Part shown: positions 27,270 to 33,135 of the stretch, piece after piece
Layout of the letters: each line of letters opens with the position of its first letter
How positions within the stretch are numbered: position 1 is the stretch's first letter
Origin: a candidate division WOR_3 bacterium SM23_42
GTDB lineage: Bacteria; Hydrothermota; Tepidihabitantia; SM23-42
Direction of reading: 5' to 3'
DNA length: 64,000 nucleotides
NCBI GenBank assembly: GCA_001303785.1
Contig: LJUJ01000002.1
Span: forward strand, 3,867 to 67,866
Translations under genes and position numbers: made by a program
Notes under the pieces: model-generated
Seen by the model: only the letters and a program-made list of their open reading frames with translations
Told to the model about the DNA's origin: nothing
The model's database searches: none

Positions 27270-27542
27270 TCAGCAGCAGTTGCAGGTGGGTTCTTTTGAG
27301 CCTTTTAGTGCGGCTACAAATTGGGCGACGGCGCAGCCGAATCCTGCTTCTACCGTGATTGCTTCGACCGGACAGTTGCGCGCACACGCGCCACATTCCA
27401 TGCATGCCGTGGGTCTGATGAGTTGGGCGACATGTCCGGTCTGAGTAAAGACGCCATGTGGACAGACGCTACTACACATGCCGCAGCCAGTGCAGAGCTC
27501 GGCATTATATCTAAGGGTAGTTTCCAGGTATTTGCTTTTCAT
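27270..27542 (-). CDS. hgcB: HgcB, 2x[4Fe-4S] ferredoxin of the mercury methylation system
   Basis: Two CxxCxxCxxxCP motifs (CTGCGMCSSVCP and CMECGACARNCP). Terminal vicinal Cys pair ...CNCC*. Lies 12 nt downstream of hgcA. Confidence 0.8.
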   Translation of the reverse strand: MKSKYLETTLRYNAELCTGCGMCSSVCPHGVFTQTGHVAQLIRPTACMECGACARNCPVEAITVEAGFGCAVAQFVAALKGSKEPTCNCC

Positions 27543-27554
27543 TAGCTATGCTCG

Positions 27555-28517
27555 TTAACGGATAAACCTGAATATAACGCCTAACAGGGTGCCACCGCAA
27601 AGCATCCAAAACATCACCGGGAAATAGGCGGAGATTTCGCGCTCCACGCCGCTCCTGGATGCGTATGTTGTTACCCCTGTAGTAGTGAGTCCAATAAAAC
27701 CAACAAGCGACGGTAGGATGAGGAGATAGGGCAATGCATAACCAACTCTTTTCCACCACTCGGCAAGAGGATTATCAAAGAATGCCAAAAGAAAGAATGG
27801 TATTGCAACGATGCTACCCAGGAGGAATCCCTTGGTGCTGAAATTTGGGGTCGGTATCCATGGCAGAAGAATAGGAAATATGATTAAATTGGCAACTACA
27901 ATTGCCAGTATGGCGAGAGCCGCGAGCGGGCCACTCACTAAGTAAAGAAAAACCGTTATTATAATCGCCGGCAACAACATATGGGTTACCTCTACGGGGA
28001 TTAATATCAAGCGGTCTAGCAGGTTGAAACGTACGCGTCGCATCTCGGGTGTGGCCTTGTAATTTCTTAGGTATTCTGGAAGATCTTCTGCTCTAACCGG
28101 ACCATATTCGATTCTAAATCCGGTTCGTTCAGTTACCTCATGAGCAGCGACCCCTGGCGCGCCCAATTGAGGTAGGATCAGCATGTCGTGGTCAACGTGT
28201 TGCTTCAGTTTCACGCTATCGATACGGTGTATCAGTTCTTCGGTGCCGAACGTACCTTTACCGGCAGCACACCACACGTTAATACCTTTTGTATCTAGCA
28301 CTAATATGTAGCAGTCGACACCAAAAAGTGCAGCGCGCAGTTTGTCAAAACTTAGTCCATAGTTTGCAGTGACAAAAACACTTGATTGCTTGTCGGGATT
28401 TCCGAGTGTATAGAGCCCTGGTTGGACGCGAAAGCGGTCGCGCCTGAGTCCGGTGCGGGCGAGAAGGTGATTTAGCTTGTCTCGCAAAGTGAACGTGCTT
28501 GTGGTATGTTTGATCAT
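27555..28517 (-). CDS. hgcA: HgcA, corrinoid protein of the mercury methylation system
   Basis: Diagnostic cap-helix motif GINVWCAAGKGTF in the N-terminal CFeSP-like domain. C-terminal five-TM domain. Confidence 0.85.
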   Translation of the reverse strand: MIKHTTSTFTLRDKLNHLLARTGLRRDRFRVQPGLYTLGNPDKQSSVFVTANYGLSFDKLRAALFGVDCYILVLDTKGINVWCAAGKGTFGTEELIHRIDSVKLKQHVDHDMLILPQLGAPGVAAHEVTERTGFRIEYGPVRAEDLPEYLRNYKATPEMRRVRFNLLDRLILIPVEVTHMLLPAIIITVFLYLVSGPLAALAILAIVVANLIIFPILLPWIPTPNFSTKGFLLGSIVAIPFFLLAFFDNPLAEWWKRVGYALPYLLILPSLVGFIGLTTTGVTTYASRSGVEREISAYFPVMFWMLCGGTLLGVIFRFIR

Positions 28518-28541
28518 ATCAGTCAGAGGATGTTCATGGCT

Positions 28542-28569
28542 ATTATAGTGAGGGGCAGCAAAGTGTCAA
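28542..28569 (-). promoter_or_regulatory. sigma-70 promoter for hgcA (TTGACA-16-TATAAT)
   Basis: The minus strand reads cTTGACActttgctgcccctcacTATAATagcc, with the -10 about 25 nt upstream of the hgcA ATG. Confidence 0.55.
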
Positions 28570-28722
28570 GATGCTGAGCTCGAAAGGACTTTCTGTCAGC
28601 ATGCAGGGTGTAGAAAACTCGTAAGACGATGAGCGTAGTACGTAAAGCGTCAAGCGTACTGCGTGGGACGTCTATGGGTTGACTAGTTTTTAGTTATGTG
28701 ATCGATAGAAAGCTAAGAAATA

Positions 28723-29778
28723 TTACCACAAGAATCGCGTAACAAGGTTATGCCACTCCTCGTCGCTCAATCTTTCACAGAAGTTCTCGATGAGCTGGCC
28801 ACCATCGGTAATGGTCACACCTGTATTCTCCTCACATTCCTGGTGTAGCTTATCAAACTCGTTCTCGAGCCACTCTCTAACCTGCGAGCCTTTCAGCATA
28901 TCATTAAGGTCGCTTGATGGTCTTATCTTTAGTAGCCAACCACGTTTGTATGGTTCGCTACGCACCAGCATGGGATTTGACTCAACAAGATTGTTCCTTT
29001 CGATGATTTCGCCGTCGGCAGGCAATGACATTGAAACCATTCGCTGGGCGCTTCCGATTTGCCAGCACGTTTCATCTTTCTTAAAGGAAGTTTCGCTGGA
29101 CAATTGTACCTTGTCAATTGTGCCCATCAAGCGAGCGGCAAAGTCATCGACGCCGATCTTAAGCAGCTCGCCCTCGACCTTGACCCATATATGATTCGGG
29201 AGGTAGTGGAAATCTTCGTTAATCGTGAATCCCTTGACTGTTCTAACACGTTTTGCCGCACGCTGACGTCTCTTCTGAAGTGCGCGATTCGCATCCATCG
29301 TATCTTGTATATACTGGTCCACTGTACAGTGCCAGCACTCGTAATTATTGGGGCAGATCTTATACGAGAAATCGCCAGTAAGCATGTATCGGCACTTCCG
29401 CTCTGATGCCGGCAGCTGACGTAACTTCGCGATTGCCTGCACGACCATTGACGATCCTGAGCCCTCTTGTTCGGTCAACGACTTGTCGAACTCACAATTC
29501 TTGCAATCATAATTCTTTGTGCACATTCGATATTCAATAACACCTGCTTTCATCCAAATGCACGGCTTTAGCTCTGCCGATGCTCCAGGCTCTTGAATTC
29601 TCGGGGTCATGATATCCTCCTTTTCATTATGAGCCACGAATTCCCGATACACAGCACACTCCTGATAGTGCGCATCACACATGTTCTGTAAGGCAGGGTC
29701 ACCTTTTGGTACCATCTTCTTGACCTTGCACGCGTTGCAATATGCAACGATGATTTCTTCCAAAAAAGGACATTTCAT
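28723..29778 (-). CDS. Cys-rich protein with C-terminal glycine-cleavage H-protein-like (lipoyl/biotinyl-fold) domain
   Basis: AGGAGA RBS before MKCPFLEE. At least 14 Cys in the N-terminal 180 aa, with CxxC pairs CNAC, CKNC, CWHC. C-terminal block NHIWVKVEGELLKIGVDDFAARLMGTIDKVQL resembles GcvH. Confidence 0.6.
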   Translation of the reverse strand: MKCPFLEEIIVAYCNACKVKKMVPKGDPALQNMCDAHYQECAVYREFVAHNEKEDIMTPRIQEPGASAELKPCIWMKAGVIEYRMCTKNYDCKNCEFDKSLTEQEGSGSSMVVQAIAKLRQLPASERKCRYMLTGDFSYKICPNNYECWHCTVDQYIQDTMDANRALQKRRQRAAKRVRTVKGFTINEDFHYLPNHIWVKVEGELLKIGVDDFAARLMGTIDKVQLSSETSFKKDETCWQIGSAQRMVSMSLPADGEIIERNNLVESNPMLVRSEPYKRGWLLKIRPSSDLNDMLKGSQVREWLENEFDKLHQECEENTGVTITDGGQLIENFCERLSDEEWHNLVTRFLW

Positions 29779-31879: not shown

Positions 31880-31887
31880 TCGCACAT

Positions 31888-31915
31888 ATTATACCCTGAT
31901 CAATGAAAATGTCAA
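31888..31915 (-). promoter_or_regulatory. sigma-70 promoter TTGACA-16-TATAAT for the archaemetzincin-regulator operon (near-leaderless)
   Basis: The minus strand reads TTGACAttttcattgatcagggTATAAT. The ATG at 31879 lies about 9 nt past the -10. Confidence 0.5.
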
Positions 31916-31964
31916 TTTTTTTGACATGTGTTTACTAATTAAACACCCGCATTATGACGTTAGC

Positions 31965-31992
31965 TTGACAAACCGGATATTGGAGGTAAAAT
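31965..31992 (+). promoter_or_regulatory. putative sigma-70 promoter TTGACA-16-TAAAAT for the histidine kinase gene
   Basis: ttgacaaaccggatattggaggtaaaat. The predicted TSS falls near the ORF's GTG at 31999, so the true start of the kinase gene is uncertain. Confidence 0.4.
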
Positions 31993-31998
31993 AGAGCT

Positions 31999-33135
31999 GT
32001 GAAGAAGCGCAAGAATAAAGGGCAGAAGAGGAAGGAAGTCATTGGCTTCGATGTCAGTATGATGCGTCCTTTCATGGAGGGTTTGCTTAAGAACATGGAA
32101 GGCGGTATCTTTGCCATTGACCTTAATCGGAAAATCATCTTTTTCACAAAAGCAGCTGAATGGATTACTGGCTATTGTCTCGACGAAGTGCTCGGTAAGA
32201 AGTGCCGCGATATTTTCAAGAGCGATACATGTAATGAGGAGTGTCCGTTTGACAAGGTACTTAAGAAAAATATACCCGTCCACATGAGAAATGTTACAAT
32301 AACCGGCAAATACGGTCTTAAAATACTGACCTCCAGGTCGTTTTTCAGGCTAGACGATGTCCACGGTAACACGAGAGGTATTGCCATTATTTTCCGTGAC
32401 ATCACCGAGTTGCAGAATTTGAGACAGCAAGTCATACAATCAGAAAAATTGGCCGTGATGGGGCAGTTAGCAGCTGGTGTTGCGCATGAGATCAACAACC
32501 CAATAAATGGTATAATCACCTACCTGCATTTGATGCTTAAACAACTGGCTGAGAAGAAAATGGACCCAGAGGTCTGGGAGAAAAACCTAAGACTTGTTGA
32601 ACGCGAAACAATCAGAATTGGGCGTTTGGTGCGTAATCTTTTGAACTTCTCGAGGAAAACTGAACCTGAACTCGGGTCGGTCAATCTTAAGAGACTTTTG
32701 AACGAAACACTGCCCGTATTGGAGGATCAGTTCTTGATCAAGAATATTAAAATCTCTGAGAAATGTGAGGATGAAATCCCTGACGTACTCGGAGATCATT
32801 CTCAGTTACAGCAGGTCGTGATGAACCTGATCGTCAATGCGATACAGGCCGTCGACAATGGAGGATGCATTGATGTCGCCCTCGCAGCTGAGGGTGCAAA
32901 AGGCAGTGAATGCTTTGTCGCCCTTGAAATCAAAGATAATGGTGTTGGGATTCCAGAAGAGGATCTAGAGAATATCTTTGATCCCTTTTATACTACGAAG
33001 ACAGGAGAAAAAGGCGGCGTTGGTCTTGGGCTTTCAATTGCGAAGCAGATTATCAAGGCGCACCACGGCCGCATAAGAATTCAAAGCAAAGTAGGCAAAG
33101 GCACGACTGTGTCTATCCGTCTACCGACACCCTAG
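31999..33135 (+). CDS. PAS-domain sensor histidine kinase
   Basis: HisKA H-box GVAHEINNPINGI and HATPase_c blocks (NLIVNAIQA, DNGVGIPEE, GGVGLGLSIAKQI). Divergent from the NtrC-family regulator. The start may instead be ATG 32060. Confidence 0.7.
   Translation: MKKRKNKGQKRKEVIGFDVSMMRPFMEGLLKNMEGGIFAIDLNRKIIFFTKAAEWITGYCLDEVLGKKCRDIFKSDTCNEECPFDKVLKKNIPVHMRNVTITGKYGLKILTSRSFFRLDDVHGNTRGIAIIFRDITELQNLRQQVIQSEKLAVMGQLAAGVAHEINNPINGIITYLHLMLKQLAEKKMDPEVWEKNLRLVERETIRIGRLVRNLLNFSRKTEPELGSVNLKRLLNETLPVLEDQFLIKNIKISEKCEDEIPDVLGDHSQLQQVVMNLIVNAIQAVDNGGCIDVALAAEGAKGSECFVALEIKDNGVGIPEEDLENIFDPFYTTKTGEKGGVGLGLSIAKQIIKAHHGRIRIQSKVGKGTTVSIRLPTP

Follow-up and report, generated by a model that had tools for sequence, protein, structure and literature searches.

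Probable independence of hgcAB from an adjoining sigma-54 two-component module in candidate division WOR_3 bacterium SM23_42

The DNA analyzed here, referred to as the window, is a stretch of 64,000 nucleotides (nt) from contig LJUJ01000002.1 of the candidate division WOR_3 bacterium SM23_42; its subject is the gene pair hgcAB and the genes lying immediately upstream. The minus strand carries, in this order, archaemetzincin, sigma-54-dependent response regulator, sigma-54 promoter, Cys-rich GcvH-like gene, hgcA and hgcB, and a PAS histidine kinase is transcribed divergently. Based on comparisons with other loci, we consider it likely, at a probability of roughly 0.8, that two independent transcription units stand side by side and that their juxtaposition is the product of local rearrangement. 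In the first unit, the soluble PAS kinase presumably phosphorylates the response regulator, which would be co-transcribed with the archaemetzincin-like gene from a consensus sigma-70-type promoter. The activated regulator would then bind three TGT-N11-ACA dyads centered on a region from about -106 to -172 and open the sigma-54 promoter, thereby driving the GcvH-like gene. In the second unit, hgcAB would be transcribed from its own sigma-70-type promoter. The two units were probably brought together by a local rearrangement in a variable region, an event confined to a narrow subclade of SM23_42-like bacteria.

Regulation of hgcAB matters for predicting methylmercury production, and control through sigma-54 and a two-component system would have offered a new handle on it. 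The earlier note on this DNA had read the minus-strand gene order, the divergent kinase, the exact -24/-12 consensus, the start of the GcvH-like gene and the separate promoter of hgcA much as they are given here, and all of these hold, with the features lying at or very near the positions it had assigned (Table 1). It had gone on to propose an enhancer-dependent regulatory context for hgcAB. One part of that proposal stands, as a real, functional-looking unit does lie directly upstream; the other does not, as the module has a target of its own and hgcAB has its own promoter.

Table 1. Features of the hgcAB region and of the adjoining module. Positions are those of the window; alignment A3 comprises nine orthologous intergenic sequences.
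Feature	Position	Strand	Remarks
hgcB	27270..27542	-	90-amino-acid (aa) ferredoxin; NCBIfam HgcB_ferredoxin NF040864, Pfam Fer4 x2
hgcA	27555..28517	-	320-aa corrinoid protein; NCBIfam HgcA_corrinoid NF040863 equivalog, Pfam CdhD
Spacer, GcvH-like gene to hgcA	28518..28722	-	205 nt; without recognizable intrinsic terminator
hgcA sigma-70-type promoter	28542..28569	-	TTGACA-16-TATAAT; 12/12 match; -10 hexamer ends 24 nt before ATG
Cys-rich GcvH-like gene	28723..29778	-	351 aa; Pfam GCV_H at residues 194-307 only
Sigma-54 (-24/-12) promoter TGGCACGAACATTGCA	29804..29819	-	exact TGGCAC-N5-TTGCA; ends 25 nt before ATG 29778
Candidate activator dyad C TGTTACTAAAATATACA	29892..29908		TGT-N11-ACA; about -106 from inferred transcription start
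Candidate activator dyad B TGTTAAAAAATAATACA	29939..29955		TGT-N11-ACA; about -153; right half-site TATACA invariant in A3
Candidate activator dyad A TGTATAAAAAAGCAACA	29958..29974		TGT-N11-ACA; about -172; TGTA and AC invariant in A3
Sigma-54-dependent response regulator	29986..31338	-	450 aa; Response_reg, Sigma54_activat 3e-70, AAA_lid_14, HTH_8
Archaemetzincin-family metalloprotease (amz)	31325..31885	-	NCBIfam archmetzin 167 bits vs cutoff 145; Pfam Peptidase_M54
amz-regulator sigma-70-type promoter	31888..31915	-	TTGACA-16-TATAAT, 12/12
Kinase sigma-70-type promoter	31965..31992	+	TTGACA-16-TAAAAT, 11/12
PAS-HisKA-HATPase_c histidine kinase	31999..33135	+	soluble; divergent from amz-regulator pair; Pfam
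Perfect TTGACA-N16-18-TATAAT set	13586-13613, 15528-15556, 28542-28569, 31888-31915, 35674-35701, 50071-50098, 58276-58303, 62478-62505		

Positions 27270-28517 were assigned to the hgcAB mercury-methylation gene pair by protein models, cap helix and HgcB motifs. HgcA scored 394.4 bits on the NF040863 equivalog model, against a cutoff of 275, and is 100% identical to a protein named for WOR-3 bacterium SM23_42. The HgcA cap-helix motif N(V/I)WCA(A/G)GK carries the cobalt-ligating Cys. In the translation of 27555-28517 this motif is NVWCAAGK, seen within GINVWCAAGKG, and the C-terminal half of the protein is hydrophobic. HgcB passed its model marginally (99.4 bits vs a cutoff of 99 on NF040864); its translation contains two CX2CX2CX3C motifs, CTGCGMCSSVCP and CMECGACARNCP, together with a C-terminal CNCC. 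The hgcB gene lies directly 3' of hgcA after a gap of 12 nt. The pair is flanked upstream by the GcvH-like gene and downstream by a convergent gene for a membrane protein with a spermidine-synthase domain; the Pfam domains of the neighbors in the window include no ArsR/SmtB-family helix-turn-helix gene adjoining hgcAB.

The promoter of hgcA belongs to a set of eight perfect TTGACA-N16-18-TATAAT matches in the window (Table 1), where 0.04 would be expected, and the SM23_42 genome appears to use textbook, near-perfect sigma-70 consensus promoters. For comparison, the 220 nt upstream of hgcA were taken from nine loci of the WOR-3 clade whose HgcA proteins are 66-100% identical. Every one of the nine has a TTGACn-N16-TATAAT or TATACT promoter, and the ATG follows 20-30 nt after the end of the -10 hexamer. 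The upstream neighbor varies among these loci, with at least six kinds, among them genes for the GcvH-like protein, an ATC-hydrolase, an Rce1-like protein, an FG-GAP protein and an outer-membrane protein, as well as a DUF456 neighborhood. Since the promoter is kept whatever gene lies upstream, hgcAB behaves as an autonomous cassette with which the promoter travels along. WOR-3 hgcAB would accordingly be described as a small cassette with a strong housekeeping-type promoter, and there is no sign of dedicated regulation in the clade.

The sigma-54 promoter has an equally well defined gene of its own. TGGCACGAACATTGCA is the sole exact match to TGGCAC-N5-TTGCW in the 64-kb window, for which shuffled sequences gave an expectation of 0.10. 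The mechanical open reading frame of the GcvH-like gene extends to 29826 and runs over this promoter; the start was placed at ATG 29778, with the N-terminus MKCPFLEE..., from alignments of homologues and from a GGAG at 29784-29787. At orthologous loci of the WOR-3 type, a -24/-12 element with no more than two mismatches lies 9-34 nt before the corresponding start in 23 of 28 cases. Among Desulfobacterota-type loci, whose GcvH-like proteins lack the first ~50-70 residues, 23 of 47 show a sigma-54 promoter in the 450 nt upstream when one mismatch is allowed, against a background of 0.02 per 450 nt. In alignment A3 the invariant islands include TGGCA, TTGCA, dyad half-sites and the ribosome-binding site. 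Because the element is kept before orthologues, it is an ancient, conserved feature of the GcvH-like gene, and it appears to be under clear purifying selection.

Three 17-bp dyads, each TGT-N11-ACA, occupy the interval between the stop codon of the regulator gene and the sigma-54 promoter. The earlier note had suggested looking for paired NtrC-type half-sites within 29830-29985, and these dyads, at 29892-29974, fit that description. Sites of this form occur 18 times in the window, and this is the one cluster of three within 120 nt. Dyad positions were calculated assuming that transcription starts ~12 nt downstream of the GC element, and on this assumption the layout near -172, -153 and -106 would be typical of the NtrC class. 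Dyad A is also an arm of an inverted repeat that pairs with dyad C. In orthologous intergenic regions, from close relatives to candidate division B38, dyads occur ~185, 165 and 117 nt before the start codon, and an equivalent of dyad C lies ~101-122 nt before the start codon at most orthologous loci; the dyad in candidate division B38 reads TGTAGCGTTTCGCTACA. The TGT-N11-ACA form was derived in this analysis.

A direct repeat of 31 nt (29851-29881 and 29931-29961, 84% identical, spaced by 80 nt) is also present upstream of the sigma-54 promoter. Its distal copy overlaps dyad B, and its proximal copy, which retains only the ACA half-site, is not conserved in orthologues. As a further activator site the repeat was rejected; with an incomplete and unconserved proximal copy it would amount to a degenerate fourth site at most.

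Module and hgcAB are distributed independently. The family of the GcvH-like protein was surveyed by scanning one genome per species, which gave 219 confirmed loci, and the neighborhoods of the best 80 of these were searched by tblastn with the window proteins over distances of up to 6 kb. Among these best 80 loci the regulator was found in 71, the archaemetzincin in 67 and the kinase in 57; all three were present in 54, and most of the exceptions are short contigs. No hgcA was found near the module at any of the 80. The module occurs in WOR-3, Stahlbacteria, TA06, candidate division B38, Aminicenantes and many Desulfobacterota; more than 100 homologues of the GcvH-like protein were seen, those that are named coming from WOR-3, TA06 or Stahlbacteria. 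By these gene associations it is a module spanning several phyla, made up of a PAS kinase, an archaemetzincin-like protease, a sigma-54 regulator and a Cys-rich, predicted non-lipoylatable GcvH-like target. We found no paper on it, and the target protein falls into no curated family. As a by-product of this analysis, an uncharacterized multi-phylum module with a clearly defined promoter and a candidate operator is of more interest than its adjacency to hgcAB.

The converse holds for hgcA. A metagenome scan with HgcA returned loci at 43-60% identity that lie outside the WOR-3 clade, and these were used as a negative control for linkage. In 80 such diverse loci, with flanks of up to 10 kb, no module genes were found near hgcA. 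A screen of 79 loci for a sigma-54-like promoter within 300 nt upstream of hgcA, or for an activator gene in the flanks, was likewise negative (0/79). Within the WOR-3 clade, eleven hgcA contexts were examined, taken protein by protein, and seven of these are without the module. Upstream of the gene for the nearest HgcA that is not identical (P0114, 82%) stands a divergent ATC-hydrolase gene and no module. Two complete WOR-3 chromosomes hold both module and hgcA, ~0.93 Mb apart in CP070664.1 and ~0.80 Mb apart in CP070802.1. The expectation that related hgcA loci would keep the regulator, kinase and sigma-54 promoter was thus not borne out in 7/11 clade contexts. The neighbors are not conserved in related genomes, one of the outcomes that the earlier note itself had named as making the adjacency fortuitous, and we regard the adjacency as largely that. 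More generally, adjacency in a single metagenome-assembled genome is a poor basis for reading regulation.

Close relatives of the module, defined by a GcvH-like protein at least 76% identical to that of the window, were then divided according to the gene that follows. In three contigs hgcA follows the GcvH-like gene on the same strand: L082, L170 and the P0004 contig, with GcvH-like proteins 87%, 85% and 80% identical to that of the window. In L001 (85%), L081 (80%) and L171 (78%), hgcA is not directly downstream of the module. Including the window, the junction is found in four related contigs, in the same order and orientation. The neighborhoods of hgcAB in WOR-3 genomes (L081 and L163-L169) are composed, in varied order and orientation, of a common set of orthologous genes, all of which have counterparts within window positions ~17800-39600. 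This set includes genes for ATC_hydrolase, a 432-aa FG-GAP protein, a 218-aa protein resembling an outer-membrane protein, DUF456, a metallo-beta-lactamase-fold protein (lactamase_B) and a 507-aa nitroreductase-FlgD_Ig-T9SS protein. Such reuse of the same genes in different orders marks a hot spot of local rearrangement. A metagenome-assembled genome with such a hot spot could also yield a chimeric contig, so that the adjacency would be an artefact of assembly or binning. However, the same junction is found in independent assemblies from ENA (L082), Logan (L170) and JGI (the P0004 contig), by which this explanation is effectively refuted.

A more serious alternative is that hgcAB forms the distal part of a sigma-54 operon comprising the GcvH-like gene, hgcA and hgcB, which is switched by the signal of the PAS kinase and for which the sigma-70-type promoter provides basal expression only. 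Several observations count toward it and against separate units. The terminator scan found no intrinsic terminator on the minus strand of 28518-28722, and the fold of the spacer RNA is no stabler than that of shuffled sequences (z = 0.38). Among the spacers of relatives, that of L170 has no terminator and that of L082 has one weak match, which overlaps the hgcA promoter. With the genes on one strand and no recognizable terminator between them, sigma-54 transcripts may run on into hgcAB. Retention of order and orientation in the four related contigs could reflect selection and not shared descent, and, the kinase PAS domain and the target protein both being Cys-rich, a metal, thiol or redox signal is conceivable. 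Two further points weaken the account of the first unit itself. Binding of the dyads by the regulator is inferred from conservation and adjacency, and a six-frame translation of the window and of ~170 further loci contains no RpoN box. For the presence of rpoN in the genome there is indirect evidence, in the form of an activator with an intact GAFTGA and a -24/-12 element that appears to be under purifying selection.

Against a common operon, the consensus promoter of hgcA is kept in all contexts, the module and hgcA are each found without the other in the surveys above, and the two complete chromosomes keep them ~0.8-0.9 Mb apart. The junction itself also argues against it. The spacer is long, and its length in relatives with the junction ranges from 175 to 296 nt, whereas gaps within operons of this region are short (-14 nt between amz and the regulator gene and 12 nt between hgcA and hgcB, vs 205 nt before hgcA). 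When the spacer DNA of the three relatives with a GcvH-like-to-hgcA junction (window, L082 and L170) was compared, it spanned 177 to 296 nt and was poorly conserved except for both promoter hexamers and a short 5' leader. We therefore rate the common operon as unlikely, and give similarly low odds to the milder proposition that sigma-54 transcripts read through into hgcAB and add a conditional component to its expression. A more specific version, in which read-through across the 205-nt spacer in the SM23_42-like subclade would let the Cys-triad PAS kinase, perhaps on a redox, thiol or soft-metal cue, conditionally boost hgcAB above its sigma-70 baseline, should be considered slightly more doubtful still. 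If true, mercury-methylation genes would for the first time be known to receive an enhancer-dependent input that responds to a signal. The close relatives with and without the junction constitute a natural test set for read-through, those lacking it serving as natural controls. Judged from these comparisons, the two separate units form an ordinary side-by-side arrangement in which coupling by read-through keeps a slight chance.

The Cys-rich GcvH-like protein consists of two dissimilar parts. Its C-terminal ~120 residues match the GcvH fold (Pfam GCV_H, 1e-18; PDB GcvH chains down to 1e-23 in a profile search), and the profile search against PDB returned GcvH chains only. The 185 N-terminal residues contain ~14 conserved Cys and a tandem C-x12-C-x5-C-x2-C unit, as seen in an alignment of GcvH-like homologues (alignment A1); searches against Pfam, NCBIfam and PDB gave no match to this extension, and the tandem unit was also found fused to a receiver-TPR protein. 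Using AlphaFold2 with a 27-sequence alignment, the GcvH half alone was modeled confidently, and the Cys-rich N-terminus had pLDDT values below 50. The protein falls below every NCBIfam cutoff, scoring 65.5 bits on TIGR00527 gcvH (cutoff 115.85), and in the alignment the position of the lipoyl-lysine, in the E-S-V-K-A hairpin, is occupied by Gln. A role as glycine-cleavage H protein was rejected on these two grounds, and because the lipoyl-lysine is missing the protein cannot be a glycine-cleavage carrier. It shares the C-terminal fold with GcvH and with NCBIfam families TIGR03077 (not_gcvH) and NF045810 (GcvH_rel_desulf), but differs from all three in its sub-cutoff scores, its Gln and its Cys-rich N-terminal extension.

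These properties bear on another explanation of the adjacency, namely that the GcvH-like protein is a partner of HgcAB, as a metal, thiol or one-carbon carrier, and that the genes adjoin because they share a pathway and not a regulator. The GcvH fold is a carrier-protein fold, the ~14 conserved Cys could bind soft metals, and the genes are adjacent and co-oriented in four contigs. However, the family extends to 219 genome loci, of which the best 80 have no hgcA nearby, most lineages bearing hgcAB show no GcvH-like gene in the flanks, and genomes with both genes keep them far apart; in addition, the missing lipoyl-lysine removes the glycine-cleavage carrier role. We find a partnership of this kind very improbable, well below read-through, and retain two adjoining, separately transcribed units as the preferred explanation.

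The regulator carries an intact GAFTGA, within EKGAFTGA. Its nearest NCBIfam models are AtoC, PEP-CTERM RR and NtrC, all of which scored below cutoff. The gene for the archaemetzincin, which contains Cys4, overlaps that of the regulator by 14 nt, and the two therefore probably form one operon. In the PAS domain of the kinase, a Cys triad of the form GKxC-x9-C-x3-CPF (residues ~70-90) is invariant in all WOR-3-type orthologues, and Desulfobacterota versions have a related C/H-rich pattern. The triad may be a metal, Fe-S or redox sensing site. Combined with the Cys-rich target and the Cys4 archaemetzincin, it invites speculation that the circuit responds to redox, thiol or metal signals.

Only 3-9 nt separate the -10 hexamers of the amz and kinase promoters from the candidate starts (GTG 31885 or ATG 31879 for amz, GTG 31999 for the kinase). 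The two transcripts may lack a leader, or translation may begin further in, for example at ATG 32059 for the kinase.

The module resembles NtrBC-glnAp2, AtoSC-atoDAEB and ZraSR in combining a HisKA/HATPase_c kinase with a regulator built of REC, a GAFTGA-containing AAA+ domain and a Fis-type helix-turn-helix. As in NtrC/AtoC-type systems, there is an exact -24/-12 promoter with dyads ~100-170 bp upstream, and the target gene adjoins that of the regulator. It differs from these in several respects: the regulator is below every named NCBIfam equivalog cutoff and probably shares a transcript with the archaemetzincin-like protease, the PAS domain of the soluble kinase bears the Cys triad, and the target gene encodes an uncharacterized Cys-rich GcvH-like protein. 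The regulators known to be linked to hgcAB are ArsR-like. Regulatory genes immediately upstream of hgcAB on the same strand are also a feature of Pseudodesulfovibrio and Desulfovibrio, where an ArsR-like gene, co-transcribed with hgcAB, occupies this position, an arrangement given for 112 genomes (bioRxiv 10.1101/2022.10.17.512643; Goni-Urriza et al. 2020 as cited in PMC7438021). Unlike that arrangement, the window has no ArsR-like gene, and the sigma-54 module is linked to hgcAB in a narrow subclade only and has its own target. Our literature search found no paper joining hgcA with sigma-54, nor archaemetzincin with sigma-54.

Stretches rich in ACGC or TACGC occur in the spacer preceding hgcA and downstream of the kinase gene, and some relatives have them upstream of hgcA. 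They were considered as a repeat element flanking hgcAB and rejected, as a repeat search gave one weak 24-nt pair and a cluster scan gave none in the window.

In several WOR-3 relatives (L163, corresponding to CP070664.1 494140-509080, and L166, L167 and L169), hgcA was called without an adjoining hgcB. These hgcA-only calls could reflect loss of hgcB, pseudogenization or small open reading frames that were not called. HgcA of CP070664.1 is annotated as partial, and its translation differed from the recorded protein.

The membrane protein encoded convergently to hgcB, at 24745-27075 on the plus strand, is a polytopic protein of 776 aa with a spermidine-synthase domain. A homologue of this protein is encoded convergently, directly after the GcvH-like gene, at a Syntrophobacteria locus (L065).

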